From positions 996,988-1,060,987 of the forward strand of contig NZ_JH719942.1 of the NCBI RefSeq assembly GCF_000275825.1: 64,000 bases of DNA, given 5' to 3'. Source of the DNA: Saprospira grandis DSM 2844. Lineage in GTDB: Bacteria; Bacteroidota; Bacteroidia; Chitinophagales; Saprospiraceae. The position numbers and the translations under genes are program-made. This document shows, piece by piece, positions 5,029 to 62,125 of the stretch. The notes under the pieces are model-generated. The model searched no databases, was not told where the DNA came from, and saw nothing but the letters and a program-made list of their open reading frames with translations. Every line of letters begins with the position of its first letter. The stretch's first letter is position 1.

Positions 5029-5060
5029 GAGGCCTTCCTTTTGGAAGGTCTCTTTTTTTT
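5029..5060 (+). terminator. Rho-independent terminator candidate after the S8 protease gene
   Basis: gaggccttcc-tttt-ggaaggtctc forms a 10-bp stem with one G-U, followed by T8. Confidence 0.5.
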
Positions 5061-5345
5061 GGGGCCTGCCGCCTTCGGCGGCCGGGCCCTTGCCGGGCTC
5101 GCAAGCCTGCTCGGCCCTTCGTTTTTCGCTGCGCTCAAAACTCGGTCTGGCCTGCGGCCACCCTTTCAGGCCCCTAGGCCGATAACACTGCGGCTTTCAG
5201 CCGCAGCAAAATGAGCGTAGCGAATTTTTGCGCAGGGCCGAGCAGACCTGCGAGCCACGACATAGCCCGACCCGACTGAAAGGACAACCAGCCCCAAAGG
5301 GGCGCCAGTTCGACAACCGAAGGGCGTAGCGGCAGCCCCAAAAAA
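5058..5345. repeat. REP/MITE-like GC-rich intergenic element, two inverted copies forming a ~290-bp palindrome
   Basis: Contains the family core gggctcgcaagcctgctcggccc and its reverse complement gggccgagcagacctgcgagcc. The same modules recur at least 18 times in this window. Confidence 0.8.
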
Positions 5346-5358
5346 TTATCATCCAGTA

Positions 5359-6381
5359 TTAAAGCGATAATTCCCAACTCAAGCCCGAAATATCCACTAA
5401 TTTTAGAGTTTTGGCCTTGGCCGCTAAGGCTTTGGAAATCGGCAAACGCAGGCGGGCCTTGGCCCCCAAGGGAACCACTAGGCTATGTGCCCCCGCCTTG
5501 ATTTTAGCGGGATAAGCATTCTCAATTTGTTGATCGGGCAGGCTGGAAAGAGCTTTTTGGTCCCAGTGCTTTAGAACTTGGCCCGCCTCATCTAGCAATT
5601 CAATTTGGATAAGAAAGGAGCCATAGACATCTACGCCCTCTATGCGATAGAGCTCAAAGCTCAGGCTATCGGCCTGAAAAAGCGGAGCCGAAAGGGCCAA
5701 TTTGGGCTTAACCGATTTGTTGTGTAGCTGTCCCCAAAGGCCAGAATGAAAGTATTGATTGGTATAAAGCGCTAGGGCCAAAATGAGCAAACTGCTCCAT
5801 AAAACGGGCTTTTGGAAGCGTTCCCAGCGGATAGGACCCGAGCTCCAGAACGATAGATAGCCGGCCCAGCCCCAACGCTCCAAAGCATAATGGTCTAGAC
5901 TATAGCGGCCGCCGCCTGTCATAAATATACTGGCCCCAGCAGATACCCCCAAAATGCCAATTTGCCATTCATCTAGGCAGGTGGTGCCCAGCCAGCCCGA
6001 ACCCAACAAAATGCCTAGGGCAAGGCCCAAAACGGCCAAGCTCATCAGGCGGCTCAAGAAGCCGAGCATAAAAAAGAGGCCCACAACGCCCTCTATTAGG
6101 GTAAAAAAGAGCATGGCCCACCACAAATAGGCGGGATGTTCGAGCAAAAACTCGATGATTGGGCCAATGCCAAGGGCCTGCGGCAAAAAATGGTTGAACT
6201 TGATGCCGATATAATTGGCGGCATCGGGATCTAGCTTATTGGAGAGGATCAGGCGGCGCCAAAAAGCCGAGAAATAGGTCCAGCCCACCACTAGGCGGAG
6301 GCCCAAATTGAAAACGCCCAATAATTTATACGAAAGGAATTGCTGCCCATCTTGGGGCAAAACTGCTGATTGATTTGACAT
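5359..6381 (-). CDS. DoxX-family integral membrane protein with a C-terminal soluble extension
   Basis: N-terminal half has four hydrophobic helices in a DoxX-like pattern (LGLRLVVGWTYFSAFWRRL ... GLALGILLGSGWLG). Last ~150 aa are hydrophilic. Confidence 0.55.
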   Translation of the reverse strand: MSNQSAVLPQDGQQFLSYKLLGVFNLGLRLVVGWTYFSAFWRRLILSNKLDPDAANYIGIKFNHFLPQALGIGPIIEFLLEHPAYLWWAMLFFTLIEGVVGLFFMLGFLSRLMSLAVLGLALGILLGSGWLGTTCLDEWQIGILGVSAGASIFMTGGGRYSLDHYALERWGWAGYLSFWSSGPIRWERFQKPVLWSSLLILALALYTNQYFHSGLWGQLHNKSVKPKLALSAPLFQADSLSFELYRIEGVDVYGSFLIQIELLDEAGQVLKHWDQKALSSLPDQQIENAYPAKIKAGAHSLVVPLGAKARLRLPISKALAAKAKTLKLVDISGLSWELSL

Positions 6382-6827
6382 ATAAATGAGTTTTTTTAAT
6401 GAATGAATTGCTTAATTGCCAAGCATTCATCAACTCATTTTTCCATTGTTGGTAGAGCAGAAAATAGGGCCGAGGAGGGCCTCTGGGGCCTTCAGCATCG
6501 AGCATCGCTCTATTTTTCCGCTTCATTTGGCTCAAAAAAAATAGCGAAGCCGAAGAAAGAGGCGCTAGGCCTATTTTCTTTAGCTTCACTATCCTTTGGC
6601 TCCATTGCAGCAGCCTGTTTTCGCTTTTTTGTTCTGTTTTCGCACAACTTAGGCCTTTGGCTTTGGCGGCCACAGCCGTGGGCAATTGGTCCAGACTGCT
6701 TTGCAGGGCCCAGCGCATTTTGCAGGGGGCCAGCAAGAGCAAGCTGCCCAAAAAGAGCAGACCAATATATGTGCGGAGCCTATTCATAGGCACAAACATA
6801 AGGCTTTATTCCTTTCCCTTTTCTTAG

Positions 6828-7511
6828 CTATTTACTAAGGCTTTCTAAAAGGCTTTTGGCCCCTTCAAACAAACTGTCTAGGGCTTTTTCCATTTGCCAG
6901 GCGGCTCGGTTGCGGGGCTCTACATAATTGGAGATAGACCGCAGGGCCACAAAAGGCTGTTTGGCTTGCAGGCAGGCAAAGAAAAAGGCGGCCCCCTCCA
7001 TACTCTCCAAATCGGCCTCGGGGTATTTGGCCCGAATCTGCTCGATAGAATGGGCCGAACCATGGGCTTTATTGACCGTTAGGCCCGTAGCCAAGGGCAA
7101 AAACTCGCTTTCATCGGCTTGAGGGTTATAGAGGCGCTTATTGATATAAGGCGGATTGCTCGGTGCTAAGAGGCCCAAATCAAAGAGGTCTAGAAGGCGA
7201 CCATCTTTTTCCTCGGCCCCTAGGTCCCCTAAGATTTCGGCCCGAACGTGATAGAGCTGCCCCAAGACCAAATCGGGATTCAAGGCTCCCGCTACCCCTA
7301 GGTTGATGGCCAAATCGGGGGGATTTAGGAGGAGTTCTTGGCCCAAAGCGTGGGCGGTGTGCATACTGCCCAGCCCAGTAATTAGGCAATGTAATTCTAA
7401 CTGACCTTGCTTAAAGCTGCCCGCTCTTCGCTGAGGCTCCCAGTTTTTATATAGCCATTGCAAAAGGGGCGAAATTTCTAGTTCGGTGGCGGCGACAATT
7501 AGGAGTTTCAT
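6828..7511 (-). CDS. PNP_UDP_1 family nucleosidase (futalosine hydrolase / MTA-SAH nucleosidase-like)
   Basis: N-terminus MKLLIVAATELEISPLL and overall ~225-aa size match MqnB/MtnN-type nucleosidases. Family-level call only. Confidence 0.5.
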   Translation of the reverse strand: MKLLIVAATELEISPLLQWLYKNWEPQRRAGSFKQGQLELHCLITGLGSMHTAHALGQELLLNPPDLAINLGVAGALNPDLVLGQLYHVRAEILGDLGAEEKDGRLLDLFDLGLLAPSNPPYINKRLYNPQADESEFLPLATGLTVNKAHGSAHSIEQIRAKYPEADLESMEGAAFFFACLQAKQPFVALRSISNYVEPRNRAAWQMEKALDSLFEGAKSLLESLSK

Positions 7512-8218
7512 AGTTGAGTGGCTTGTTCGGCGAGATATTCTTCTTGGCTCATGCGGTCATAATAACGCATCTTAAAGCGCTCCTTTTCGAGGACCACTTG
7601 GGTGTGGCTGACCGTCTGCACAATGCCATTATTGCGGTACATCACTAGGCCATTTTCGATATCGCCTTGGCCCCCTTCCTGATGAAACTGCCAAACAGAT
7701 TCTGGGCGGTAAGTTCCTTGCTGGCACTTCCAATCCGTAAACCAATCGGCTCTTTGGGCCTGAATAGGAGCGGGATAAAGGGTAGCTGAAGACCAGATAT
7801 AGGCTTCGGTGGGCATCAATGTTTCTACATGGGCTTTTTGTTCATCCCAGCGCAATTGGTACAAACTGCCTCGCTCATAAATGACCAAAGTAAAGGGTTC
7901 GATGCCTTCAAAATCGTAGTGTTCAAAAAAGCTGGGCGCATCCTCATAATCAAAGAAATCGAGGACCAGCAGGCCACGGCTACGCTTATAAGGCGGTTGG
8001 TGTTTATGTTTCACAAAGGCGCCATTGAGCAAACAAAGCAGGCGGCCATTATCTGAGGCGGCAATCCAAGTTCCCCCTTGGCTCGGCTCTTTGGGATAAA
8101 TTAGTCCCTTTTCTTCATTCTTAAAAATCCCCTCGGGTTGGCGGCGGGCGCTCTCATCTCGGTTAGAGGTCAGTACAAATTGGTCCTTGCCTAGGGGCAA
8201 GTAAGTTACGGTACACAT
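7508..8218 (-). CDS. NRDE-family protein (DUF833, TANGO2-like)
   Basis: Begins MCTVTYLPLGKDQFVLTSNRDE. The N-terminal Cys plus NRDE motif are the hallmark of this family. The track ORF extends to 8386, but the extra 56 codons read through a REP element, so the start is placed at ATG 8216-8218. Confidence 0.6.
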   Translation of the reverse strand: MCTVTYLPLGKDQFVLTSNRDESARRQPEGIFKNEEKGLIYPKEPSQGGTWIAASDNGRLLCLLNGAFVKHKHQPPYKRSRGLLVLDFFDYEDAPSFFEHYDFEGIEPFTLVIYERGSLYQLRWDEQKAHVETLMPTEAYIWSSATLYPAPIQAQRADWFTDWKCQQGTYRPESVWQFHQEGGQGDIENGLVMYRNNGIVQTVSHTQVVLEKERFKMRYYDRMSQEEYLAEQATQL

Positions 8219-8260
8219 AATATTATATAGTTCTTGTTTTTCGGTTGGGGTTGGGGGATA

Positions 8261-8414
8261 TTTTGGGGCTGCCCCGGCCTTTGGCCGGGTCGGGCTGTGT
8301 CGGGGCTCGCAGGTCTGCTCGGCCCTGCGCAAAAATTCGCTACGCTCATTTTGCTGGGTCTGCGGCTTCGCCGCCCCCCTTTCCATCCCTCAGCCTGCGG
8401 CGCTTCGCGCCTGC
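8261..8414. repeat. REP/MITE-like element, variant B (ggggctgcccc...gggtcgggctgtgtcggggctcgcaggtctgctcggccctgcg...atccctcagcc)
   Basis: Near-identical to copies at 15186..15325 (reverse complement), 16857..17015 and 61955..62125. Confidence 0.8.
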
Positions 8415-8424
8415 TTGCTGCAAA

Positions 8425-9057: not shown

Positions 9058-9084
9058 AGGAAAGAAGTTTCTGGTCCAAAAAAA

Positions 9085-9335
9085 TGGCGGCTTTGCCGCC
9101 TTGGCCGCAGGCCAAACGGCCTAGCGATGTGCAGGGGTGGCCGCAGGCCAGACCGAAGCGCGCAGCGCTGAAGGGCCGAGCGAACAGCGAGCCCTGGAAC
9201 GTAGCGCCGCAAGCGGAGCGCAGCGGAGGCCCCAAAAAATCAGCGAGCCCCAGAACGACAACAAGGTCTTTAGACCGCAGTTTGACGACCGAAGGGAGTA
9301 ACCGCCGCCTCATAATATGAGTGGAGGCCCCAAAA
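9085..9335. repeat. REP/MITE-like element
   Basis: Modules ggccacccctgcacatcgctaggcc (reverse complement) and gggccgagcgaacagcgagccc ... ggaggccccaaaa. Confidence 0.75.
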
Positions 9336-9394
9336 GGGCATAAAAAAGGGGAGAACAGCGAACTGTCCTCCCCTCAAAAGTACAATATTTTGGC

Positions 9395-15185: not shown

Positions 15186-15325
15186 GAGCGTAGCGACTGG
15201 CTGAGGGATAGATAGCAGGGCCGCCAAAGGCGGCAGACCTAGCGGGCACAGCCCGCGCAGGGCCGAGCAAACCTGCGAGCTGCGACATAGCCCGACCCGA
15301 CCACAAGGGAGGGGCAGCCCCAAAA
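15186..15325. repeat. REP/MITE-like element (variant B, reverse orientation)
   Basis: gggccgagcaaacctgcgagctgcgacatagcccgacccgacc…ggggcagccccaaaaa. Lies in the divergent region between the adhesin and cry-DASH genes. Confidence 0.8.
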
Positions 15326-16825: not shown

Positions 16826-16856
16826 AGGTCCATTTTTTGGACCTTTTTTCTTTTTT
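16826..16856 (+). terminator. Rho-independent terminator candidate after cry-DASH
   Basis: aggtcc-attttt-tggacct stem followed by a T-rich run ttttttcttttttt. Confidence 0.45.
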
Positions 16857-17015
16857 GGGGCTGCCCCTCCGGCCCTACAGGCCTTCGGGTCGGGCTGTGC
16901 ACTAGCTCGCTATTCGCTCGGCCCTTCACTTTTTTCGCTGCGCTTCAAAAAGCTCGGTCTGGCCTTCGGCCACTAGTTTCCATCCCTCAGCCGAGGCGCT
17001 GCGCGCCTCTCGCCT
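16857..17015. repeat. REP/MITE-like element (variant B)
   Basis: ggggctgcccctccggccctacaggccttcgggtcgggctgtgcactagctcgc … ccatccctcagcc. Confidence 0.75.
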
Positions 17016-18208: not shown

Positions 18209-18210
18209 AG

Positions 18211-19105: not shown

Positions 19106-20410
19106 ATGATGCACCGCCTCCTTTTGTGGATTCCTTATATATTTTGTTGTTTTTATTCTATGCTAAATAGGATTTGGGGCCTCCTGCCTTTGGCAGGCGC
19201 TATGTCCGGCAGCTCGCAAGTCTGCTCGGCCCTGCGGCCCTACGGGCCTAGGTCTGCGGCTGCGCCGCACTGCCTACCAGCGCTAGGCCCTGCCCGCCCT
19301 CGGCCCAATAGCGTCCTACAGGCGGCGATAGCCGCCGCAGGCCTAGGGATGGAAAGCGGTGGCCGCAGGCCAGACCGAGGCGGCTTTGCCGCCGAAGGGC
19401 CGAGCGAAGAGCGAGCCGCGACACAGCCCGCCGCCAAGGCCGCAGGCCTGCAGCGGAGGCCCCAACTCCTGCTGATTATTCTTGCCTTTTTGCTGCCGGT
19501 ACTGGCTTCGGCCCAAGCCAATATTCAGTTTTTGGTGGATAGTACAGAGCTGTTGATTGGGGACCAATTGACGGCTAGGATGCGGCTAGAAAGCCAAGAG
19601 GATGTGCTGGTCCGCCTGCCTAATCCTGCGGTATATTGGAGTAATGAGGCGCTAGAAGTGATTCGACTTTCGGATCAGTTGGAAGAAAGTAGCCCTGATG
19701 GGCTGAATAGTTTTGAGAAAAAGGTCACTTTTACCTTTTGGGATACGGGCCATTATCAGTTGCCTGATTTGCCTATTTTGTATCAGAAAGATGGGAAAAT
19801 AGATAGTCTTTGGTTGGAAGTGCCCATAATTCGGGTAAAGTTTCCGCCGGGTATTCGGGGCGATTCTAGTTATGTTGCGCCGATTAAGGACATAATGGAT
19901 GAGCCGCAGAATTTTATAGAAAAGCTGCTAGAATGGTTCTTCTTTTATCTGCCGATCATTGCGGTAGTTTTTCTCATTTTGTTTGCTGCTGTCTTGGGCT
20001 TTTTGGCCTATTTGCTCTATAAAAAAGCGCAGGCTAGAAGAACCTACAAAACGCCTGAAGAGCGGGCGCGTATAGCCCTAAAAAAGCTATTGGCCAAGGG
20101 CTATTTGGAGCGAGAAGAATGGGCGGAATTTCATACGGGCATCAGTTGGATTATCCGGAGTTATTTGCGGCTTCGTTTTAGAGTTCGGGCCTTAGAGGCC
20201 ACAAGCAGTCAGTTATTGGATCGGCTAAACTATGAGCAACTAGAGCAGAGTTTACTCTTAGAATTGAGAGAAGTACTAGAAACTGCGGATTTGGTTAAAT
20301 ATGCCAAGGCTTCGCCTTTGCCTGCGGCCAATGATTTTTCTTTGAAATTTATTCATAAAATGTTGGAATATGTAGAGCGGCAGGAAGCCCTCCGCAATAG
20401 TTCAAATTAA
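19106..20410 (+). CDS. Bat-operon membrane protein (signal peptide, one TM helix, coiled C-terminus); start codon unresolved
   Basis: The ORF as drawn starts at ATG 19106, but codons ~25-115 are REP-element sequence. The convincing protein begins LQRRPQLLLIILAFLLPVLASAQA at ~19451 with no in-frame ATG after the repeat. Alternative starts are ATG 19349 inside the repeat or a non-ATG codon. Position between DUF58 and batA is conserved in Bat operons. Confidence 0.55.
   Translation: MMHRLLLWIPYIFCCFYSMLNRIWGLLPLAGAMSGSSQVCSALRPYGPRSAAAPHCLPALGPARPRPNSVLQAAIAAAGLGMESGGRRPDRGGFAAEGPSEERAATQPAAKAAGLQRRPQLLLIILAFLLPVLASAQANIQFLVDSTELLIGDQLTARMRLESQEDVLVRLPNPAVYWSNEALEVIRLSDQLEESSPDGLNSFEKKVTFTFWDTGHYQLPDLPILYQKDGKIDSLWLEVPIIRVKFPPGIRGDSSYVAPIKDIMDEPQNFIEKLLEWFFFYLPIIAVVFLILFAAVLGFLAYLLYKKAQARRTYKTPEERARIALKKLLAKGYLEREEWAEFHTGISWIIRSYLRLRFRVRALEATSSQLLDRLNYEQLEQSLLLELREVLETADLVKYAKASPLPAANDFSLKFIHKMLEYVERQEALRNSSN
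19172..19465. repeat. REP/MITE-like composite element (left arm plus inverted right arm)
   Basis: ggggcctcctgcctttggcaggcgctatgtccggcagctcgcaagtctgctcggccctgcgg … gggccgagcgaagagcgagccgcgacacagcc … ggaggcccc. Sits inside the 5' end of the next ORF. Confidence 0.8.
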
Positions 20411-23879: not shown

Positions 23880-24046
23880 GCAACTTGGCCTAGCGATGTG
23901 GAAGGGTGGCCGAAGGCCAGACCGAGGCAGCAAAGCTGCCGAAGGGCCGAGCAGACCTGCGAGCCCTGAAACGACAACAAGGCCGTTAGGCCGCAGTTCG
24001 ACGACCGAAGGGAGTAACCGCCTGCCGAAGGCAGGAGGCCCCAAAT
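23880..24046. repeat. REP/MITE-like element
   Basis: ggcctagcgatgtggaagggtggccgaaggccagaccgagg … gggccgagcagacctgcgagccc … gcaggaggccccaaa. Confidence 0.8.
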
Positions 24047-26602: not shown

Positions 26603-26603
26603 T

Positions 26604-26840
26604 TTGGGGCCTCCGCTGAATATAATGTGGCGGCGGTTACTCCCTTCAGTCGTCGAACTGTGCCCTAAAGGGCTTGTTGTCGTTCTGGGGCTCGCTGATT
26701 TTTTTGGGGCCTCCGCAGCAAAGCTGCGGCGCTACGTTCCGGGGCTCGCTATTCGCTCGGCCCTGCGGCAGCAAAGCTGCCTCGGTCTGGCCTTCGGCCA
26801 CCCCTACACATCGCTAGGCCTGCGGCGCTCCGCGCCTGCA
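26604..26840. repeat. REP/MITE-like element
   Basis: ggggcctccgctg … ggggctcgctgatttttttggggcctccgcagcaaagctgcgg … ggggctcgctattcgctcggccctgcgg … ggccacccctacacatcgctaggcc. Confidence 0.8.
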
Positions 26841-39356: not shown

Positions 39357-40512
39357 TTTCTTTTCTTTTGGGGCCTCCGCTGCGGCCAAAGGCCTTGCGG
39401 CGCTACGTTCCGGGGCTCGCAAGTCTGCTCGGCCCTTCGGCGGCATAGCCGCCTCGGTCTGCGGCTGCGCCGCCCCCCTCCACATCGCTAGGCCAAAACC
39501 AAAAACTGCCCTAGGGGCAGCCAAAAAGGGCCTTTCGGCCCTAGTACTAAATGCGCCGAATACCGCCCAACAGGCTGGCAAGTCGCCCTTTCTTTTGGGC
39601 CTTTTGCTGCTGTTGTTCTTGGGCCTACTGCCCGCCTGCCAGCCTGCTCAATCGGCAGAGGCAGAGCCCGCCCCCCTCCTTGCCAATAGTAACCCAATAG
39701 ATAGTTTGCCCCCAAGCCAACTCCCCCCCGCTATTCGCCAAGAGCCACAGCCTCGGCTAGCCCTATTTAGCGACAGTCTGACGACCCTAAGGATTGGGGG
39801 GCATCAGGTGGATATACAACTGCCCAAGACCCCCTTTAAGGGCAGTGTGATTATTTTGCCTGGCTATAATTTCCCGAAGGAGGATGCCTGCCAAAAAGCC
39901 CCTCTCTTTTGCCAGACCTTTTTGGAGGCGGGTTATCTACTCATTATGCCCGAGATGGGACGCTCCTTATATAGTAGTCAGTATTTTCCAGAAACCCAGG
40001 CTCGTTACAAGCGCTATCCCGACCAAAACTGGGTATTAGATAGTCTGCTCCCATATTTGCAGCTAGAATATGGGCTATTAGTAGATGGGCAAGACAATTT
40101 CTTAGTGGGCATTTCTACGGGGGGCCGAGGAGCGGCTCTTTTGGCCTTGGCTGCGCCCGAGTGTTGGACCGCAGTGGCCTGCCTGTCTGGAGATTTTGAC
40201 CAAAGCCAGATGCCCAATGATGGACTGATGCGCAACTTTTATGGACCTTATATACAATTTAGTCAGCGCTGGAAAACGGTGGATAATGTTATTGCTCGCA
40301 TAGACGACTGGCAAACCCCTATTTTTATTGGGCATGGCGGAGCCGATAAGGTGGTCCCGCCTGCCCAGTCTAAACAACTTTTTGATAGCTTGCAAAGCCG
40401 TTTAGATCAGGAGCTACTCTATTACTCTGCTCCCCCCAAGGCCGAGCACAACTATGCTTATTGGGGCGCTGAGGCCAAAAACATACTGGCCTTTTTTCAA
40501 TCATTGCCTTAG
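39319..40512 (+). CDS. Alpha/beta-hydrolase esterase (lipoprotein); start codon unresolved
   Basis: GxSxG nucleophile VGISTGGRGAALLA. IGHGGADKVVP and the C-terminal region are esterase-like. Lipobox …LLLLFLGLLPAC. The ATG at 39319 overlaps the upstream gene and reads through a REP copy. Probable true start is a TTG near 39595, just before the signal peptide. Confidence 0.6.
   Translation: MFSIILSSTVMISFFSFGASAAAKGLAALRSGARKSARPFGGIAASVCGCAAPLHIARPKPKTALGAAKKGLSALVLNAPNTAQQAGKSPFLLGLLLLLFLGLLPACQPAQSAEAEPAPLLANSNPIDSLPPSQLPPAIRQEPQPRLALFSDSLTTLRIGGHQVDIQLPKTPFKGSVIILPGYNFPKEDACQKAPLFCQTFLEAGYLLIMPEMGRSLYSSQYFPETQARYKRYPDQNWVLDSLLPYLQLEYGLLVDGQDNFLVGISTGGRGAALLALAAPECWTAVACLSGDFDQSQMPNDGLMRNFYGPYIQFSQRWKTVDNVIARIDDWQTPIFIGHGGADKVVPPAQSKQLFDSLQSRLDQELLYYSAPPKAEHNYAYWGAEAKNILAFFQSLP
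39366..39495. repeat. REP/MITE-like element
   Basis: ttttggggcctccgctgcggccaaaggccttgcggcgctacgttccggggctcgcaagtctgctcggcccttcgg … ccacatcgctaggcc. Confidence 0.8.
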
Positions 40513-40997: not shown

Positions 40998-41341
40998 GAA
41001 AATACTAGCAATAAAGAGGGGGAGATGGATTTAAAGACAATATAAAAACAGTCATTTACTCCTTTACATCACTACAGCTGAGCAACTTTTACAACCTTCT
41101 GACTGATAGCAATGCGCAGGCCCTCAGCTAGAAATAGTCCTTAAAACAACTGCTAACAAGAGCCAAAACTCTATAAAACACAAAAAAATAGCCTATTAAA
41201 GTATTTTTTATTAGTTATAACTTGCATTATAAAATTATTTACCCTATGTTTATAACGCAAATAACGCAAGAGCACATTGCTTTTACTAAAGAGCTCTAGT
41301 TGTTAGACATCTAATTCTTAATCAAATAAATACCTAGTACT

Positions 41342-41934: not shown

Positions 41935-42168
41935 GGGTGGCGGCAGCAATGGCCCGCAGGGCCAAACGGCCACAACAAAGCCTTTAGGCTGCAGTTCGAC
42001 GACTGAAAGGAGTAACCGATGCGGCAGCAATGGCCCGCAGGGCCAAACGGCCTAGCGATGCGGCGGGGTGGCCGTCAGGCCAGACCGAGGAGCGAAGCGA
42101 CGAAGGGCCGAGCAGACCTGCGAGCCCCAAAGCGTAGCGCCGCAGCGAAGCTGCGGAGGCCCCAAATA
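41935..42168. repeat. REP/MITE-like element with an internal ~32-bp duplication
   Basis: cggcagcaatggcccgcagggccaaacggcc occurs twice. Followed by ggcctagcgatgcggcggggtggccgtcaggccagaccgagg … gggccgagcagacctgcgagccccaaagc … ggaggccccaaa. Confidence 0.8.
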
Positions 42169-44478: not shown

Positions 44479-44588
44479 GCTGCGAGGCAGAGGAAGTAAG
44501 CTAGGAAATAAAAAAGCATTATGGATTAGTACTTAAGCTCTAATTAAACGTATCTTACTTCTAATTAAAACACCTAATATAGAAACAA

Positions 44589-46046: not shown

Positions 46047-46058
46047 ACCCTTAGTTTG

Positions 46059-47562: not shown

Positions 47563-48254
47563 ATTTTATGTTGGCAGTCTCCTTTTTCGTTAATAATTTC
47601 ATGCTCCCCCGCTTGGTTCTGCACCAATGCAAAGCCATTGTAAAAGGGCTCTAGCTGCAAAAACCGACGATTATATACGGGCCGCCCCGCCAAATCGATA
47701 TGCAACCAACCCGCCTCATCTTTGGCCCGAGCAAATCCTTTGTGAAAAACATCTAACTCTAGATAGCGATAAGGATGTAAGGCCCTGCCCTGAGAATCAA
47801 TATGCAAACAATAACCATCGGCCTGACGAACACAGGCGTAGCCATCTCTAAAGTCGCCCGCATAGCAATAACGCGCCCCATAAAGCGGATCTCCCTGCAG
47901 ATCAATATGGAAGTATTCGCCGCCTTTTCGGACCGTGCAAATGTCTTGCTGATAGTTGCCACACCAGTCATAACGCTCCCCATAAATGGCATGTCCTTTT
48001 GTGTCTATATGAAACTGCCCTTGCTCAGAACAGACCGCCGCCCGATCACAATAATAACCAAAGGTCCGCAAATACCGCTGAGGGTATATAGCCACTCCAG
48101 TTGTATCAATATGATAACTACCACTATGATCTTCTACAGGCGCCAAACCCGGCGCATGAAACTTTAATACCGACTTAAAAGGGCCAAAAATAGCCCGCTC
48201 TTCCAAGCAAAATCCATTGCCCTCCGCATTGACTTTTATGTTTTTCCAATTCAT
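47559..48254 (-). CDS. WG-repeat-containing protein
   Basis: Five ~38-aa repeats of the form W/F/Y-x-HID-x-x-G-x-x-(V/I/L)Y-x-x-RY…F-x-x-G-(F/Y)A-x-V (e.g. WLHIDLAGRPVYNRRFLQLEPFYNGFALVQNQAG). 4-bp overlaps with both neighbours. Confidence 0.5.
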   Translation of the reverse strand: MNWKNIKVNAEGNGFCLEERAIFGPFKSVLKFHAPGLAPVEDHSGSYHIDTTGVAIYPQRYLRTFGYYCDRAAVCSEQGQFHIDTKGHAIYGERYDWCGNYQQDICTVRKGGEYFHIDLQGDPLYGARYCYAGDFRDGYACVRQADGYCLHIDSQGRALHPYRYLELDVFHKGFARAKDEAGWLHIDLAGRPVYNRRFLQLEPFYNGFALVQNQAGEHEIINEKGDCQHKI

Positions 48255-49222
48255 CTTTTCTCAAATATCAATATAGATTGTAAATCATTTAAGGGGCGCT
48301 TTTCTAAATAAATAAAGCCTGTTTGCTCCGCCAATTTCCGATAGGCCGCTAAGGTCCGCTCTTGGCTCTTACAAATGGCCAACATGTTCAAACTAAGCAG
48401 CTCGGCCCCATCGGCTAGCTGCTCTTTTAGGATTTCTAAGATATACAAGCGCCCTCCTTTTGGCAAGGCGGCATAAACGTTTTCCAATATTTTCAAGGCC
48501 GCTTCATCTGGCCAATCATGTAGTACTCTAGCCAGAAAAATATGCTCGGCGACTTGGGGAATAGGCGCAAAAAAATCTACAGGAATAGGCCGAAAAGGCA
48601 AGTCTCCCGCTGGCAATAAAGCCAATACCTTGGGCTTGTCTAATAAATAAAATGTAGGCCCAGGATAAACTCTCGCCAAGTCCTTGAGCAAAGCCCCCAA
48701 ACCGCCGCCAAGGTCCATTACAGCTTTGGCTTCCGACAAATCTAATTGCTCAGCCAAATTTGCATAATCATCCCGCGCATACTCATTCATGGCCAAATGA
48801 TACACCCGATTGCTCTCGGGATGCTCATCCAAATAATCAAAAAAAGGCTGCCCGTAAATATGGTCAAAGGCAGGTTTGTCTTCTAAAACACTATAGGCCA
48901 AATGCTGCCAAGCCCGCAAATGCTCCTCCCCCCAAAGCAAACAAGCATACTTCAAACTTTTAGGATGTTCCTCCGCCAGCTGCGCCCCTTTTTTAGCCAA
49001 AATATACTGCCCATTTTCTTCTGTTAAGGCCTCCAATTGCTCCAATGCCGCCAATAATAACTGCAAACTTGCCCGCTTGGCCCCTAGCTTTTCGGCCAAA
49101 TTGGCCAAACTAAGCGGCCCCTCCCAAAGCAGATCAAATACCCCCAACTGACAGGCGGTCCGCAAGGGCAAATAATGCCAATAACTGCTAAAACTATTCT
49201 TCAACTCCTGACTAATACTCAT
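48251..49222 (-). CDS. Class I SAM-dependent O-methyltransferase (dimerisation domain plus MTase domain)
   Basis: VMDLGGGLGALLKDLARVYPGPTFYLLDKPKV (motif I) and overall plant-type OMT architecture. The track ORF runs to 49294 through a REP copy; start placed at ATG 49220-49222 (MSISQELKN…). Confidence 0.75.
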   Translation of the reverse strand: MSISQELKNSFSSYWHYLPLRTACQLGVFDLLWEGPLSLANLAEKLGAKRASLQLLLAALEQLEALTEENGQYILAKKGAQLAEEHPKSLKYACLLWGEEHLRAWQHLAYSVLEDKPAFDHIYGQPFFDYLDEHPESNRVYHLAMNEYARDDYANLAEQLDLSEAKAVMDLGGGLGALLKDLARVYPGPTFYLLDKPKVLALLPAGDLPFRPIPVDFFAPIPQVAEHIFLARVLHDWPDEAALKILENVYAALPKGGRLYILEILKEQLADGAELLSLNMLAICKSQERTLAAYRKLAEQTGFIYLEKRPLNDLQSILIFEKR

Positions 49223-49246
49223 CTTTTTCTGTTCTACATGATTTGA

Positions 49247-49372
49247 TTTTGGGGCCTCCTGCCTACGGCAGGCGCTACGCTTTGGGGCTCGCAAGTCTGC
49301 TCGGCCCTTCGGCGGCTTTGCCGCCTCGGTCTGGCCTAACGGCCACCCCGCCGCATCGCTAGGCCAAAAAAG
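49247..49372. repeat. REP/MITE-like element inserted inside the operon between the radical SAM and OMT genes
   Basis: ttttggggcctcctgcctacggcaggcgctacgctttggggctcgcaagtctgctcggcccttcggcgg … ggccaccccgccgcatcgctaggcc. Confidence 0.8.
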
Positions 49373-51943: not shown

Positions 51944-52103
51944 TAGGCGGCGAAGCCGCCGCAAAGGAGCGAAGCGACTGGCCTAGCGATGTGCAGCAGT
52001 GCGGCGCAGCCGCAGACCCAGCAAAAAACTTGTTTTTTTGTGCAGGGCCGAGCGAACAGCGAGCTGCGAAACGTAGCGCCTGCCGAAGGCAGGAGGCCCC
52101 CAA
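51944..52103. repeat. REP/MITE-like element in the divergent promoter region
   Basis: ggcggcgaagccgccgcaaaggagcgaagcgactggcctagcgatgtgcag … gggccgagcgaacagcgagctgcgaaacgtagcgcctgccgaaggcaggaggccccc. Confidence 0.8.
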
Positions 52104-52122
52104 AAAAACCCTTACTTAATTT

Positions 52123-56080: not shown

Positions 56081-56098
56081 TTAAAGCCCAAGAAGATA

Positions 56099-56127
56099 AA
56101 GGCTGCTGAAAAGTAGCCTTTTTTTTT
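56099..56127 (+). terminator. Terminator candidate after tal
   Basis: aaggct-gctgaaaagt-agcctt followed by T9. Confidence 0.45.
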
Positions 56128-56256
56128 GGGGCCTCCCGCCTGTGGCGGGCGGTTACTCCCTTTGGTCGTCGAACTTCGCCCTAAAGGGCTTGTTGTCGCT
56201 TTGGGGCTCGCAGGTCTGCTCGGCCCTGCGCGGCTTTCAGCCGCTAGGTTGTTTTG
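56127..56256. repeat. REP/MITE-like element
   Basis: ttttggggcctcccgcctgtggcgggcggttactccctttggtcgtcgaacttcgccctaaagggcttgttgtcgctttggggctcgcaggtctgctcggccctgcg. Confidence 0.8.
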
Positions 56257-56287
56257 GGCCGATGGGCTAAAGCCCATTTGCGCTGAG

Positions 56288-56500
56288 CTATTCTGCAGCT
56301 GCAAAACGGCATCTTACAGTTGCGCTAAGCTATTCTGCAACTGCAAAACCGCATATTCCATTTGGAGGAAGCTATTCTGCAACTGCAAAACGGCATCTTA
56401 CAGTTGCGGCAAGCTATTCTGCAGCTGCAAAACGGCATCTTACAGTTGCGGCAAGCTATTCTGAATTTGTGAAACGGCAGTTGTAAACTCGGGGATACTA
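56288..56500. repeat. Tandem array: four near-identical 42-bp units (ctattctgcagctgcaaaacggcatcttacagttgcggcaag) plus a degenerate fifth
   Basis: Units begin at 56288, 56330, 56372 and 56414. Each contains complementary arms gcaactg/cagttgc around a 15-nt loop. The second unit is divergent in its distal half. Confidence 0.9.
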
Positions 56501-56856
56501 TTCGCAATTTGGGGGGACTGTTCATAATTTTGTGTATCCGAATAAAATTTTGGTATTTGGCCAACAGTCGCCTAGGAGCAGAAAGGGCGTAAACAGTCTC
56601 CAAAATGTTAGATAATATCTCATAGCCATGGACTAAAGTCCATGGTTGTGGGGCTATGCAAAGAGCGGGCTAAAGCCCTTGTTTGCTGATAGGGCCTAGG
56701 GAAAGAGAAAATCCCCTCGAATGAGGGGATGGCAATTTTTTAGTTAGCCTAGGGCCTTGGCCCTAGGGTTTCTATAAATTTTATGAGAGGAATATATAGT
56801 AGGCAGCAAAAAGGGCATACACAAAATTTCAAACAGTCTTGCAAAAATTCGTCCTA

Positions 56857-56992
56857 CAGGCCCGAAGGGCCGCAGGCCTAGCGATGCGAAAGGGGGCGGC
56901 GCAGCCGCAGACCAAGGCCGTCAGGCCGCAGGGCCGAGCAGACCTGCGAGCCCTGAAGCGTAGCGCCTGCAGCTTTGCTGCAGGAGGCCCCA
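56857..56992. repeat. REP/MITE-like element
   Basis: ggcccgaagggccgcaggcctagcgatgcgaaagggggcggcgcagccgcagacc … gggccgagcagacctgcgagccctgaagc … gcaggaggccccaaaa. Confidence 0.8.
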
Positions 56993-57031
56993 AAACAACA
57001 ACAGCAAGAGCATAAAAAACAGCAAACTAAA

Positions 57032-58207: not shown

Positions 58208-58335
58208 ATAGAGTTTTTCCTCCCTAATTTTTTTATTAAATTGTACACGTTTTAGCGACTCATTTAAAAAAAGTGTGGATTTATTTCCTTTTAGATGAAA
58301 AAGTCAACCTAAGGATTTTTTGGCTGTTAGAAGCC

Positions 58336-60435: not shown

Positions 60436-60474
60436 CTTTGCGCTATTGTTTTCACGCCTCCTCTCCTCTTGATC

Positions 60475-61950
60475 ATGAAATTTACTGCCGAAAAAATAGC
60501 ATTTTATAGCCTTGGTTTTCTTTTTTGTATCCTGCTGATTTATAAAGCAATCAGGATGAGCATGACCCATGATGAAGCGGCTACTTTTTTGGTCTATACC
60601 AAATGGTCTATTTATGATATCTGGACCAATTCGGGCCCCAATCCTACCGCCAACAACCACTTACTCAACACCTTATTGATTAAGTTTTGGGTGCAGCTCT
60701 TTGGCGATCATCAGCTGATGGTCCGCTTAGCCAATATTTTGGCGGGATGCAGTTTTTTCTATTTCTCTTGGCGCCTGATGCAGCAGGTTTTTGGCCCAAA
60801 AAATAAGCTTTTGGCCCTCTTGGGCTTCAGCCTCCTGCTGATGAATAATTATCAGTTTGATTTTTTTGCGGTGGCCCGCGGCTATGGCTTGTCTATGGGC
60901 TTTTTTATGCCCGCGATCTATTTTTCGCTGCAGGCGGTCTCCAATTCTTCTATCCGAAGCTGGAGCGGGGCTGTCGGCCTTTGCCTACTGGCAGTTTTGG
61001 CCAATTTTAGTAGTCTCGTTTTTTGTATCGCCTTGCTGGGCAGCACGCTGCTGCTGGCACTCAAGAAAGAGCGAAACTGGCGGTTTTTGGGGCAAAGTCT
61101 AGGCATTGCAAGCCTGGCAGCTCTCTTACTCGCCCTCGCTATTTATCCAGCAGTCATTACCTTAATTGAGCATGACCAACTCTATTTTGGAGGCGAAAAT
61201 GGCTTTTTCCAAGATACTATGGGCAGCCTCGCCCAATCTTATACACACAATATTTCCTTTTTGCATTCGCCCGAATATATCCACGGGGGCTTTGGACTCC
61301 TGCTTATTTTTGCCGCCTCCCGTCTGCTTTTTTCGCTCTTCAAAGAAAAAAGTCAAGGCCCTGCGCTTTTCCTTCAATTGGGCCTCTCTTGCCTTCTAGC
61401 TAGCTGCATCGGCCATATTCTACTCTACCTCCTTTTCGATGTCAAGTTCCTGATTCAACGAACAGCCCTGATTTATTTCCCCCTACTGCAGTTTTCACTC
61501 ATTAGCCTGCTCTATAGCCTTTATCAAGTTTTTCCCTTGGCCAAAAAATGGAAAAATACGGCTTTGGTCTTCACTAGCGTTCTGGGCCTAAGCCTTTTTG
61601 GCCTCAACTACCGCCCAAATACCATGACCGAATGGTACTATAATGTAGAGGATAGAAAAATTTTGAGCGAATTGGAGACCAGCATTCCCAAAAATGAAAC
61701 CCATACCCTAGGCATCTGGTGGCTCTTTTTCCCCACTTTCGAGTTCTATCTAGAAACAGGGGTCTATCAAAATATTCAGCTCAATCCACACAATATGCAG
61801 CTCGACCTAGAGCAGGATTATGACTATTATTTTATTGACCACAATGCAGAACGAGTGGCCGCTTTAAGCAAAAAATACGAGCGCTTCAAAAATTACCAAC
61901 AAGGCATTCTCTTTCGCCACAAGAACTTTCCCATTCAGAAAAATAAGTAG
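60475..61950 (+). CDS. Polytopic membrane protein, GT-C-like (family 39/83-type glycosyltransferase candidate)
   Basis: At least 10 predicted TM helices. Early loop motif RMSMTHDEAATF resembles the DE-containing first periplasmic loop of ArnT/PMT-type GT-C enzymes. Family call tentative. Confidence 0.45.
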   Translation: MKFTAEKIAFYSLGFLFCILLIYKAIRMSMTHDEAATFLVYTKWSIYDIWTNSGPNPTANNHLLNTLLIKFWVQLFGDHQLMVRLANILAGCSFFYFSWRLMQQVFGPKNKLLALLGFSLLLMNNYQFDFFAVARGYGLSMGFFMPAIYFSLQAVSNSSIRSWSGAVGLCLLAVLANFSSLVFCIALLGSTLLLALKKERNWRFLGQSLGIASLAALLLALAIYPAVITLIEHDQLYFGGENGFFQDTMGSLAQSYTHNISFLHSPEYIHGGFGLLLIFAASRLLFSLFKEKSQGPALFLQLGLSCLLASCIGHILLYLLFDVKFLIQRTALIYFPLLQFSLISLLYSLYQVFPLAKKWKNTALVFTSVLGLSLFGLNYRPNTMTEWYYNVEDRKILSELETSIPKNETHTLGIWWLFFPTFEFYLETGVYQNIQLNPHNMQLDLEQDYDYYFIDHNAERVAALSKKYERFKNYQQGILFRHKNFPIQKNK

Positions 61951-61954
61951 TTTT

Positions 61955-62125
61955 TTTGGGGGCTGCCCCGCCCTCTGGGCGGGTCGGGCTATGTCGCAGC
62001 TCGCAGGTCTGCTCGGCCCTGCGGGCTTTTCGCTCCGCTTCAAAAGCCCTAGGTCTGGCCTTCGGCCACTGCTTTCTATCCCTCAGCCGCGTCGCTGCGC
62101 TCCTATGCGGGCGCTGCGCGCCCTG
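61955..62125. repeat. REP/MITE-like element (variant B)
   Basis: ttttgggggctgccccgccctctgggcgggtcgggctatgtcgcagctcgcaggtctgctcggccctgcgg … ctatccctcagcc. Confidence 0.8.

Follow-up and report, generated by a model that had tools for sequence, protein, structure and literature searches.

A dense family of intergenic repeats

In the window, a 64,000-nt stretch of Saprospira grandis DSM 2844, 18 intergenic gaps between positions 5057 and 62088 host 20 copies of a repeat, one per 3.2 kb and ten on each strand (Table 1). An element is present in 17 of the ~20 gaps of at least 165 bp. A single repeat unit is 113-140 nt long, and the copies with their optional modules make up ~2.9 kb, or ~4.6% of the window. 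The sequence-only reading had counted at least 18 copies, about one every 3.5 kb in both orientations, and had put their share at 5%, close to these values. It had given the element a size of 130 to 290 bp, which needs correction: the 290-bp units are doublets, not single elements. The inverted pairs that it placed at 5058-5345 and 19172-19465 are real.

A 27-nt core matched 15 times in the window at three or fewer mismatches and never in 100 shuffles. The pattern GCTCGC-N4-7-GCTCGGCCC retrieved 20 copies. A covariance model (R1) of the kind suggested by the earlier reading was trained on 25 copies; an unfiltered scan of the window recovered precisely those 20 copies (E-values between 3e-29 and 6e-4) and added no further convincing match. 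The density is ~1 per 3 kb in the Saprospira genome, and a chromid-like plasmid carries the repeat at the same density as the chromosome. Copies were evenly split between the strands on the plasmid (11+/10-) and overall (155/153). Rfam held no matching family even at E up to 10, the repeat was not found in the viral contigs searched, and the literature searched contained no description of it. These results support a single genuine, very dense, modular and extragenic family in both orientations.

Some copies seemed to lie inside ORFs (19106.., 35742.., 39319.., 7508..8386 and 48251..49294). These cases are artefacts: the ORFs were judged to be over-extended through the repeat because the gene calls of a syntenic genome show so. 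The remark that the repeat gives rise to spurious ORFs was justified.

Table 1. Copies and modules of the repeat in the window (R1, score under the covariance model in bits; L numbers, contigs used for comparison).
Position	Strand	Type	R1 or other evidence	Context
5057..5180	+	Full copy; head GGCCT; P3 class GGGCCCT/AGGCCCC	79.3	Left member of tail-to-tail doublet; directly after terminator hairpin and T-run of subtilase/PKD gene (294-4997)
5177..5345	-	Type II head (GGGGCTG), B-box-like insert; core 5235-5255; 3′ half truncated, fused to tail of 5057..5180	25.7 (over 5177-5299)	Head towards stop of gene 5359-6381 (-)
8261..8395	+	Type II; head GGCTG, tail CAGCC	60.4	Between TANGO2-like and ABC ATPase genes, antisense to both; core and HP2 (53 nt) as in 5177..5345, different from L015 and L064 orthologs
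9118..9237	-	Type I; short core TGTTC	92	Downstream of SprB-like gene 9395-15052 (-); tail followed by extra hairpins, then hairpin and T-run at 9086-9117
9238..9331	-	B-module	102-bp indel against L015 and L125	Inserted before head of 9118..9237; missing at this site in both relatives
15199..15325	-	Type II	63.2	Divergent gap between SprB-like and cryptochrome-photolyase genes; L015 ortholog has extra modules
16853..16992	+	Type II; short core TATTC; P2 CTAG/CTAG	51-59	Immediately 3′ of terminator hairpin and T-run of photolyase gene
19172..19289	+	Type I; P2 GGCAG/CTGCC	104.2	Left doublet member (tail-to-tail), gap after DUF58 gene; ortholog in L015
19340..19467	-	Hybrid: type I head, type II-like P3; P2 GCGG/CCGC	79	Right doublet member; head ~25 nt before next gene's start (~19490, inferred from L015 gene call)
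23887..24046	-	Type I; B-box between HP1 and P3	89.7	Between two BatD genes, antisense; L015 ortholog has plain A-type head
26603..26701	+	B-module	Sequence; B-box match 26649-26659	Starts directly past TAA stop of gene 25838-26602; ends in TGA and T-run
26702..26820	+	Type I; short core TATTC	123.4	With 26603..26701, same B+A composite as 9118-9331
29689..29826	-	GGCCC/GGGCC class; long HP1	76.4; class statistics	Head 33 nt upstream of PIG-L gene start (29859)
33267..33383	+	Type I	129.1	Begins 1-2 nt past stop of major-vault-protein-like gene, convergent gap; then extra hairpins (33384-33440) and separate canonical terminator (33460-33495); copy and gene both missing from L062
35768..35890	-	Type II	84	Divergent gap; head ~35 nt before WD40-caspase gene start; tail interrupted by and abutting unrelated 162-bp MITE
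39366..39494	+	Type I	103.6	T-run starts ~10 nt past WD40-caspase gene stop (39356)
41938..42048	-	Extra modules: duplicated GGCC hairpins and B-box fragment		Tail side of 42049..42167; partly missing from L062
42049..42167	-	Type I	107.8	Upstream of YebC/TACO1 gene, antisense to it
49247..49365	+	Type I	136.9	Fills 165-bp gap between co-directional radical-SAM/SPASM and O-methyltransferase genes (both -; Pfam); antisense to both; head at most 10 nt from downstream gene's start
51980..52104	-	Type I; short core TGTTC; A/T-stem HP2	102.3	Divergent gap; head 19 nt before sigma-54 activator gene start (52123)
56124..56289	+	B-box insert; degenerate 3′ half	39.4	Directly 3′ of terminator hairpin and T-run of transaldolase gene; left member of wide pair split by 42-bp tandem array
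56875..56995	-	Type I	96.4	Head abuts start region of THUMP-like gene
61955..62088	+	Type II	70	T-run right after TAG stop of gene 60469-61950; convergent gap with dnaX; extra hairpins to ~62130; kept in L048 though upstream gene missing there

Covarying helices around an invariant core

The element is read in the order T-run and GG, P1 (a closing helix of 5 bp), HP1 (a variable branch hairpin), P3, P2, core, HP2 and HP3. P3 is an irregular helix of seven positions with conserved internal mismatches, followed in the scaffold by a 3x3 loop and then by P2 (4 bp). The core is an invariant, unpaired stretch of 21 nt, CTCGC-N5/6-GCTCGGCCC, extended by -TKC. It carries a direct repeat, GCTCG-N6/7-GCTCGG, with a spacing of 11-12 bp or about one helical turn. 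HP2 and HP3 are variable hairpins that share a junction with the core, HP3 stacking on P2. The left and right arms form imperfect inverted repeats of ~20 nt that flank the central region. The module series described earlier (head and first hairpin, core, then GGTCTGGCC..GGCCACCCC..CATCGCTAGGCC or ..ATCCCTCAGCC) was confirmed, with two head/tail variants among the window copies; the base after the core, given earlier as T or C, is T or G (CCCTTCG or CCCTGCG). An optional B-module, as present at 9238..9331 (-), consists of a head GGGGCCTCC, a hairpin, GGCGGTTACTCCCTTCGGTCGTCAAACT, a second hairpin, and TTGTTGTCGTTCTGGGGCTCGCTGA with a T-run; its B-box matched 33 times across all loci.

All helices covary, nearly exclusively through Watson-Crick pairs. 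P1 comprises five different sequence classes, with complementarity kept in 90-100% of copies, and 168 of 186 copies formed P2 with 4 bp or more in exact register, across nine sequence types. P3 formed a mean of 4.9 of its 7 pairs (4.0 for permuted partners), one position showing three Watson-Crick types. The P2-P1 spacing was exactly 11 nt in 141 of 156 copies. In the model-based alignment, 92.9% of cells were paired against 68.1% in shuffles (none of 500 as high) and 37-52% in slid controls, and 24 of 26 pairs varied on both sides; such covariation figures are inflated by the relatedness of subfamilies, and this alignment (A3) had been fitted to the model. Among its 2,960 cells, double changes numbered 725 and G·U-type cells only ~20; the 38 single mismatches included two G·T and two A·C. 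The arm sequences diverge between subfamilies yet stay complementary, while the centre is invariant. Folding was predicted for both strands, with modest thermodynamic z-scores for single copies (+0.3 to -3.3).

Polarity towards genes

The T-run end, or head, faces the nearest gene, be it at that gene's stop or its start. The head side was nearer to the flanking ORF in 83 isolated copies versus 40, and on the annotated plasmid in 18 of 20. All 35 doublets are tail-to-tail. The claim that most copies follow a stop codon holds for only about half of them; the rest precede a start codon by 10-50 nt. Relative to the head-side gene, the element is in sense at 3′ ends and antisense at 5′ ends. Orientation with respect to transcription is mixed: the window has ~10 sense and 7 antisense copies, and both orientations are also found within the pur and paa operons. 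Many copies start 0-4 nt past a stop codon with no intervening terminator, and several lie just downstream of a canonical hairpin and T-run terminator. The mixed orientation, the copies beyond complete terminators and stems without tolerance of G·U argue against the earlier proposal that termination or stabilisation of transcripts is the defining role.

Persistence in relatives and search for a mobility partner

For Saprospira sp. CCB-QB6, all six compared gaps hold the element at the same place and in the same orientation, while HP2, the core variant or the 100-bp B-module is swapped between the two genomes. Metagenomic relatives show the same persistence with module exchange. In relatives with 79-88% nucleotide identity, none of the ~14 syntenic sites lacks the element, and no insertion polymorphism of a whole element was seen in ~45 kb of synteny. 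The repeat is found throughout Saprospiraceae with 36-47% GC, with full-length model matches in contigs L009, L011, L102, L130 and L096 (36-41% GC), and Lewinellaceae (56-64% GC) have a divergent form that keeps the core, the head, P1 and a P3-like helix. The best reading of this distribution is a vertically inherited, non-autonomous family specific to the Saprospirales lineage. Its spread across a whole bacterial family, the long-range helices and the strict polarity rule had escaped the sequence-only reading.

A 53-nt tract of core and HP2 is identical between the copies at 8305 (+) and 5235 (-). Because the former differs here from its own orthologs, the identity points to a gene-conversion tract.

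The search for a RAYT, called for earlier, found no homologue in 985 kb of element-rich sequence. No multicopy transposase or ORF family was detected in ~870 kb, no target-site duplication at the elements, no TnpA or TnpB near them, and no integron integrase or cassette array, the neighbours being syntenic housekeeping genes. A genuine MITE lies in the same genome at 35606-35768. Because no gain or loss of a whole element was caught, we can only infer mobility, the exact ends and whether the T-run is a target or part of the element.

Possible nature of the element

The almost exclusively Watson-Crick changes, folding of both strands and even strand split are a DNA-like signature. We give about an even chance to a REPIN/BIME-like element that acts as folded single-stranded DNA (or an extruded cruciform), not as a duplex motif and probably not as RNA, and is recognised by a putative trans-acting protein. 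The invariant core would be the sequence-specific site of this conserved, chromosomally encoded protein, and the stems would need only to pair. By analogy with RAYT, candidates would be an HUH/Y1-type or other structure-specific nuclease or recombinase. New copies would be very rare and would be inserted at gene borders, beside a T-run and with no duplication of the target, a placement that would fix the head-towards-gene polarity. Gene conversion or template switching among ~1,300 or more copies might keep reshuffling the existing ones, so that whole hairpins or modules would be replaced with the arms kept perfectly Watson-Crick. Effects on transcripts, as structured 3′ or 5′ UTR ends, would probably be secondary.

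The same fold could act as RNA, either as a cis-acting UTR module (exonuclease protection, processing or termination), as a small structured RNA or as a repeat-borne self-cleaving ribozyme. A conserved unpaired core in a multi-helix junction is also a hallmark of ribozymes and riboswitches, and the repeat has such a junction, in which 21-27 nt of invariant sequence stay unpaired amid variable, covarying stems. Copies just past stops or within the pur and paa operons must be transcribed, because no terminator intervenes or because they lie within operons, and their arrangement relative to the head-side gene is regular. However, real RNA families tolerate wobble pairs, on the transcribed strand only, whereas here G·U is virtually missing and G·T is no commoner than A·C among single mismatches. 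Given the mixed orientation, transcripts would carry now one strand of the conserved core, now the other. The repeat shows no evident promoter-like element of its own, and its T-run is unlike the Bacteroidota TAnnTTTG box; the copies behind complete terminators and the lack of an Rfam match also speak against RNA. We consider this explanation rather unlikely.

The direct repeat in the core could alternatively be a duplex-DNA site, in an array bound by a nucleoid-associated or topological protein, much as IHF, gyrase and Pol I bind BIMEs, or at transcription-unit boundaries. Its helical phasing, the occupancy of nearly all large gaps and a polarity that tracks gene borders instead of transcription direction would fit, but the strict covariation of four to six helices and the exact P2-P1 spacing are left unexplained. 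As the whole account this is improbable, although duplex binding could be a host-level function compatible with folded single-stranded DNA. The MITE-like character proposed earlier would make the element a cut-and-paste deletion derivative of a DDE-type IS, with P1/P3/P2 as terminal inverted repeats. The inverted arms, the high intergenic copy number in both orientations and the presence of a genuine MITE in this genome agree with it. A transposase binding terminal repeats predicts conserved ends, the reverse of variable, complementary arms around an invariant centre; target-site duplications and empty syntenic sites are missing, ~870 kb yielded no multicopy transposase ORF, the core is conserved in two bacterial families, and the 5′ T-run is asymmetric. 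A classical MITE is improbable.

Comparison with known systems

Self-cleaving ribozymes borne on repeats (hammerhead, twister and others) share high-copy interspersion and an invariant single-stranded core at the meeting point of their helices. The Saprospira repeat differs in that it has no Rfam match, does not tolerate G·U and is mixed in orientation to transcription. Its junction strands do not match the hammerhead in length or motifs.

Modular intergenic repeats include pneumococcal BOX (boxA-boxB(n)-boxC), rhizobial RIME and neisserial NIME and Correia elements; Correia elements end in inverted repeats of 26 bp and duplicate TA. Like these, the Saprospira repeat joins conserved boxes to modules that are optional or variable (the B-module, the forms of HP2 and the added tail hairpins), lies between genes and inside operons, has secondary-structure potential and is a target for other mobile DNA (here the MITE in a tail). 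Their sequences are conserved within a species or genus, and we know of none with a covarying long-range fold and an invariant unpaired core throughout a bacterial family.

attC sites, IS200/IS605 ends and PATE derivatives are likewise recognised by structure rather than stem sequence and have short conserved boxes with variable stems. Insertion of the IS200/IS605 kind, beside a short specific sequence and without duplication, would fit the constant T-run and the missing target-site duplications. Unlike integrons, the Saprospira repeat is not linked to an integrase or cassette array, and unlike IS200/IS605 elements, with their separate left- and right-end hairpins, it is one closed multi-helix unit with neither TnpA/TnpB nearby nor strand bias. 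The even split between strands speaks against an IS608-like mechanism with strict lagging-strand specificity.

The likeness to REP/BIME elements seen earlier stands in several respects, and membership in the REP or the MITE class is not established. To our knowledge, a strict head-to-gene polarity with a 5′ T-run has not been described for REPINs. The Saprospira unit is not a REP, a REP doublet or a palindrome of 20-40 nt; it folds into a branched structure that three helices close and from which three hairpins project, and its conserved part is the unpaired centre, not the palindrome. The host belongs to the Bacteroidota, and the GTAG tag (as CTAC beside HP1) is present in only ~40% of copies, although the complementary strand of type I copies reads GTAG-CG-(palindrome), as in GTAG-tagged REPs. 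REPIN/REP elements are inherited vertically and persist long at their loci with very low duplication rates (bioRxiv 10.1101/2021.07.10.451892; PMC2817692), and the Saprospira repeat is also inherited vertically at the same loci. As in the REPIN-RAYT/REP/BIME systems of Proteobacteria, it is extragenic, GC-rich, ~100-130 nt long and present in hundreds to thousands of copies, with an overall imperfect-hairpin shape, doublets that are always inverted and a mosaic composition. The best reading is a REPIN/BIME-like element of new design, neither a simple palindrome nor a classical MITE.

An intergenic repeat family in the window

The repeat family described in the sequence-only reading is real. 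A 27-nt core was found 15 times in the window at no more than three mismatches but in none of 100 dinucleotide shuffles, and a looser pattern, GCTCGC-N4-7-GCTCGGCCC, had 20 matches, 10 on each strand. The covariance-model scan proposed in that reading was carried out with a model (R1) built from 25 copies and run unfiltered over the whole window. R1 returned exactly the same 20 copies, with E values from 3e-29 to 6e-4; its remaining output consisted only of noise and head fragments of insert-bearing copies, the head being the end of the repeat with a T-run and GG and the tail the opposite end.

Between 5057 and 62088, 18 intergenic gaps hold the 20 copies. Counting the optional modules, the family takes up 4.6% of the window (about 2.9 kb). 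The modules, the two variants of head and tail, and the inverted pairs of copies (doublets) reported at first sight were all present. The GC content of the repeat islands was 62–76%, compared with a background of about 47%. All copies lay between genes, both the 20 in the 64-kb window and 21 in 50 kb of a plasmid, and a single copy overlapped a stop codon, by 2 nt.

Mechanical ORFs traverse the repeats and encode peptides such as ..RGGRRPDRG.., so the suspicion that the family generates spurious ORFs was borne out. ORFs that seemed to hold copies were over-extended, as gene calls in Saprospira sp. CCB-QB6 put the true starts downstream of the elements. Separate spurious ORFs overlapped many copies. 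Examples are listed in the table with other features of the window and of compared loci.

Coordinates of ORFs, genes and other features near the repeats (window unless another locus is named; L015, syntenic region of CCB-QB6; L062, L064 and L125, metagenomic relatives; L011, a compared locus)
Position	Feature	Remarks
7508-8386	5'-over-extended ORF	runs through repeats
19106-20410	5'-over-extended ORF	runs through repeats
35742-39356	5'-over-extended ORF	runs through repeats
39319-40512	5'-over-extended ORF	runs through repeats
48251-49294	5'-over-extended ORF	runs through repeats
L015 14042-15103	5'-over-extended ORF	runs through repeats
4876-5214	separate spurious ORF	100–190 aa
23727-24044	separate spurious ORF	100–190 aa
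33153-33473	separate spurious ORF	100–190 aa
56126-56464	separate spurious ORF	100–190 aa
6381-6828	447-bp gap without a repeat copy	no called gene in the syntenic genome; overlapping ORFs 6326-6799 (-) and 6403-6789 (+) without a Pfam match; R1 matches at chance level only
9217-9318	102-bp B-module (optional insert)	in the window only, versus compared relatives
30737-33265	842-aa protein	Major Vault Protein shoulder domain (PF11978, E 6e-30) and vault repeat; gene and adjacent repeat copy both missing from syntenic L062
35606-35768	162-bp MITE, genuine, unrelated to the family	15-bp terminal inverted repeats GCCAGATTTAAWCGC; exactly in the tail of a type II (GGCTG-head) element, break point CCCTCA/GCC
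L125 21-178 (also L064)	same MITE	at the tail of another element, the ortholog of 8305+
35925-39356	large protein	N-terminal WD40 propellers, C-terminal caspase (Peptidase_C14); repeat copies on both sides
40725-40998	tandem array	12.5 copies of a 22-bp unit, or read as a 44-bp unit; in a long gap
56286-56507	tandem array	42-bp period, 4.2 copies, also 84 bp; between two elements of the 56.1–57.0 kb gap
L011	comparable short tandem array	after its element
43261-47003	defence island, probably recently acquired	35–44% GC; PD-(D/E)XK protein matching PADLOC candidate PDC-S26 (E 7e-117), then a PARIS-like pair of AriA-like AAA_15/AAA_21 ATPase and AriB-like DUF4435 protein
L062 6050-6090	ortholog of window 35826-35846, one of few copies with a disrupted core	core split by a 34-bp insertion ACCCGACCAACGGGAGCCGACGCAGCAAAGCAAGT between GAGCG and AACAGCGAGC

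A branched fold around an invariant unpaired core

The unit is 113–140 nt long, with three helices (P1, P3 and P2) and three variable hairpins (HP1–3). Its 5' half consists of the T-run (3–8 T) with GG, P1-5' (5 nt), CC-(HP1)-GG, P3-5' (7 nt), 3 nt and P2-5' (4 nt), the last nucleotide of which is the G of GCTCGC. The unpaired core, CTCGC-N5/6-GCTCGGCCC-T(T/G)C, follows, and then HP2 and (C)TNGGTC. The 3' half is made of HP3, closed by a T-A pair, P2-3', 3 nt, P3-3', 1 nt and P1-3'. Of 156 parsed copies, 141 had exactly 11 nt between P2-3' and P1-3'.

The helices were found in the raw sequences by position-specific tests. For each of five head classes (GGCCT, GGCTG, GGCCC, GCGTG and GGCTT), the exact reverse complement of P1 was present at the tail in 90–100% of copies, compared with 0–38% for non-cognate 5-mers at the same position. 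P2 had at least four consecutive pairs in exact register in 168 of 186 copies, with a mean of 4.02 pairs against 2.43 with permuted partners; these figures come from a position-specific parse, which took the place of a simple zone test with an excessive background. Its sequence types include GCAG/CTGC, GGGG/CCCC, AGGG/CCCT, GTGG/CCAC, GCCG/CGGC, GCGG/CCGC, ATGG/CCAT, CTGG/CCAG and CTAG/CTAG. P3 had 5–6 of 7 pairs, with internal mismatches conserved in every class (for example, GCTACGT/ACATCGC, GGGCTGT/CCATCCC, GCTATGC/GCAGCGC, GGGCCCT/AGGCCCC and GCTCCCT/AGGCAGC), and one of its positions varies as T-A, C-G and G-C.

The same helices were recovered de novo by a scan of all column pairs without prior assumptions. 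In a model-based alignment of 122 copies (A3), which are related to each other and whose alignment was fitted to the model, 92.9% of cells were paired, compared with 68.1% in shuffles, none of 500 being as high. Both sides changed in 24 of 26 pairs, double-change cells numbered 725 against 234 expected, and pairing fell to 37–52% with slid partners. A3 replaced a MAFFT alignment of all subfamilies (A1), which misaligned the heads; the raw-sequence tests of P1, P2 and P3 are independent of it. Folding with DNA parameters reproduced most helices, with modest z-scores (+0.3 to -3.3).

Polarity towards genes

All 35 pairs of cores lying within 450 bp of each other were in the '+ -' order, with tails inward and T-run heads outward, a label unaffected by reverse-complementing a locus. 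No '- +', '+ +' or '- -' pairs were found among these doublets, whose two members belong to different subfamilies. Of the isolated copies, 83 had the head nearer to the adjoining long ORF and 40 had the tail nearer (p ~1e-4), with median distances of 41 nt for the head and 106 nt for the tail. On the RefSeq-annotated plasmid, the head was the nearer end in 18 of 20 copies: six heads were at -2 to +4 nt from a stop codon, and seven were 10–53 nt upstream of a start codon. The polarity holds whatever the orientation of the neighbouring gene. Insertion beside T-runs would account for it; such runs are frequent immediately beyond genes, on the strand that reads outward. Selection would account for it too, with the T/A-run kept as an unstructured spacer that separates the stable fold from the coding or initiation region.

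Persistence at fixed sites and exchange of modules

In the syntenic region of CCB-QB6 (86% nucleotide identity), all six compared gaps were occupied, with place and orientation unchanged. In syntenic metagenomic contigs (79–88% identity), every site was occupied except one, which was lost with its neighbouring gene. Whole elements are thus old and stable. About 45 kb of synteny at 79–88% identity showed no whole-copy presence/absence polymorphism; the modules alone differed. The unrelated MITE in the window was polymorphic, being absent from the orthologous site in L062, and served as a positive control for such polymorphism. Its presence at two element tails suggests that the element tail is its insertion target.

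At site 8305, the core variant (AGGTCT versus TGTTC) and HP2 were exchanged between otherwise identical flanks. The window version is identical over 53 nt to 5235- (core position and strand of another copy), which indicates conversion from that other copy. At site 23944, the B-box, which is optional, was found in place of a plain linker, and the reverse situation was seen at other sites.

Distribution across chromosomes, a plasmid and metagenomes

Exact matches to the core were found in metagenome-assembled genomes (MAGs) of Saprospiraceae and Lewinellaceae, in DNA of 36–64% GC. One metagenome dominated by a Saprospira relative had 272 cores in 808 kb. A cryptochrome/photolyase gene flanking the repeats had 88% identity to its CCB-QB6 counterpart. 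A more distant relative (74% amino acid identity, 40% GC) had no copy in a 21-kb region. The core was absent from the viral contigs searched, so there was no sign of a phage origin. Matches in two metagenomic loci (L087 and L088; DNA of 69–74% GC) were dismissed as chance, as they lay in coding sequence and lacked the architecture. The forms in Lewinellaceae and in another compared locus (L096) retain the head, HP1, the core and P1, together with a P3-like helix; there are compensatory changes, and the central C·C mismatch is the same. The GGTCTG-HP3-P2 part is missing from these forms.

A plasmid of about 54–55 kb in all three sequenced Saprospira strains carries the family at 17–18 unannotated places each. 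In that of S. grandis Lewin (NC_016936.1, L138), R1 found 21 copies in 50 kb, equal to the chromosomal density. The gene content of this plasmid includes genes of de novo purine biosynthesis (purF, D, N, H, B, Q and L-like), guaA, guaB, pyrD and a paa operon. Conserved in three strains, the plasmid behaves like a chromid. From one copy per 2.4–3.2 kb over about 4.2 Mb, we infer a genome total of about 1,300–1,700 copies. The low-GC defence island in the window was without any copy, which would fit a slow spread of the family into newly acquired DNA.

About 4–5% of these genomes, chromid included, consists of an unannotated element. The family also fragments short-read assemblies, with contig ends falling inside copies. 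In Logan assemblies of the same organism (L012–L014), 1.7-kb contigs were single genes bounded by two repeats, and many of the contigs L017–L136 start or end inside an element. Repeat-driven false ORFs are an annotation hazard for this clade. Because of these spurious ORFs and over-extended gene starts, masking the family would improve the annotation of Saprospirales genomes and MAGs.

DNA-level or RNA-level element

Wobble pairs are a common intermediate step in RNA families, where only the transcribed strand tolerates them. In our alignment, one-sided (G·U-type) changes were seen in about 20 of 2,960 cells, against the 725 double changes. A separate count of 38 single-mismatch stems included two G·T and two A·C. 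The near-absence of G·U despite dozens of hairpin sequences suggests that the two arms change together, and a need for both strands to fold is suggested. Such joint change would result from template switching or from gene conversion acting on DNA. A strand-specific wobble test gave no information because the stems hardly contain mismatches. The minimum free energy of the whole element slightly favours the complementary strand and G·U counts favour the sense strand; neither was counted as evidence.

A functional structured RNA would tolerate G·U on one strand and keep a consistent orientation, and the family does neither. In the window, about 10 copies were sense to transcription, seven were antisense and three were in divergent gaps; in the plasmid, copies in both orientations were found inside the pur and paa operons. 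Several copies lie just after a complete hairpin and T-run terminator (5030, 16815 and 56075). Rfam had no match at gathering score across the whole window, and a permissive search with one clean copy gave only chance-level matches (all E ≥0.39). Stems with almost nothing but Watson-Crick pairs, mixed orientation, copies after terminators and the lack of an Rfam match together favour a DNA-level element, which may also have an RNA role. The idea that the repeats terminate transcripts was not upheld: within the element, no hairpin with a U-run after it occurs on either strand, and canonical terminators exist separately. A hammerhead-like junction was rejected by inspection, as motif order and junction lengths did not fit. 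A Bacteroidota -7 promoter box (TAnnTTTG) in the T-run was also rejected for its composition, with A at -8 in only 6% of copies.

Search for a partner and a possible processing system

With E. coli RayT as a phmmer query, there was no match at E ≤10 among six-frame ORFs of 985 kb. Clustering in about 870 kb of element-rich sequence gave no multicopy ORF family. Pfam searches of the window and plasmid genes found no transposase; these genes were ordinary housekeeping genes. A single-copy partner gene elsewhere in the genome is possible. The proposed mechanism is that a trans-acting protein recognises the folded DNA strand.

A further, improbable reading is that the element is the substrate of an unrecognised replicative or processing system of Bacteroidota. 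An enzyme unrelated to RAYT may cut, copy or bind the core displayed at the junction, or the core may have catalytic activity of its own, in RNA or DNA form. Templated fold-back or gene conversion would then renew the hairpin modules, giving perfect Watson-Crick arms only. If such a system existed, the family would be a vertically inherited 'genomic symbiont' of a new class, with polarity to gene borders built in.

Watson-Crick-only covariation, wholesale module replacement and strict polarity lie outside the predictions of existing REP/MITE models, and these regularities point to a partner protein that can be searched for directly. To our knowledge, the REPIN-RAYT systems of Proteobacteria are the main documented case to date of repeat populations that persist by vertical inheritance. 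Whether such populations are a general phenomenon would be tested by an independent system in Bacteroidota with a more elaborate structure.

Comparison with known repeat families

We found no description of this family in the literature searched, and the REP surveys found there were silent on the lineage. It is an undescribed repeat family spanning Saprospirales. The branched fold around an invariant unpaired core, Watson-Crick-only covariation, module exchange at fixed loci and strict polarity are its new features.

Integron attC sites are found at the 3' ends of promoterless cassettes, in one orientation and adjoining intI. An attC array was rejected because the copies adjoin syntenic housekeeping genes and operons and occur in both orientations, and because the window and plasmid genes include no integrase. 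The ends of IS200/IS605 elements and their derivatives (PATEs) insert 3' of a short sequence without duplication, with a strong strand bias and a TnpA/TnpB partner. The constant 3–8-nt T-run 5' of the head and the lack of a target-site duplication resemble them, but there was no strand bias and no partner was found in the 870–985 kb searched. MITEs have target-site duplications, conserved terminal inverted repeats in common with an autonomous IS, and copy polymorphism. In our family, the longest k-mer common to both flanks averaged 2.35 nt, compared with 2.42 nt for permuted flanks, and the ends are complementary but differ in sequence among at least five classes. With no target-site duplication, no conserved terminal inverted repeats, no insertion polymorphism in about 45 kb of synteny and no autonomous partner in about 870 kb of element-rich sequence, MITE identity was rejected.

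A REP is a single imperfect palindrome of 20–40 nt with a constant GTAG/CGTC tag at one end. High copy number and extragenic restriction are shared, but the branched unit of 113–140 nt is not a single short palindrome and only its HP1 part is REP-like. In about 40% of parsed copies, those of the GCTACG classes, the foot of HP1 is 2 nt away from CTAC, which reads GTAG on the opposite strand. The remaining copies have ATAG or ACAG, and CGTC occurs in the optional B-box only. The label REP/MITE-like given in the sequence-only reading is reasonable as a general category, while the palindrome definition of REP and the hallmarks of MITEs do not apply.

REP/REPIN-RAYT systems include a cognate single-copy RAYT (HUH/Y1) gene, often flanked by REPs, and a REPIN consists of two inverted REPs forming one long hairpin. 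The arms of one Saprospira element instead pair through P1, P3 and P2 at about 16 of 23 positions, and are not two copies of one REP. BIMEs are mosaic clusters of alternating orientation with conserved linker motifs; our doublets are always inverted (35 of 35) with mosaic modules, but are spaced at 139–447 bp without fixed linker motifs. The family has the vertical inheritance and persistence at orthologous sites of REPINs. REPINs and BIMEs are extragenic and hairpin-forming, about 100–130 nt long, with inverted doublets and mosaic structure, and are inherited vertically and evolve slowly (bioRxiv 10.1101/2021.07.10.451892, PMC2817692, PMC3733652). These systems are the closest in behaviour to the Saprospira family, which is classed here among REPIN/BIME-like intergenic repeats.
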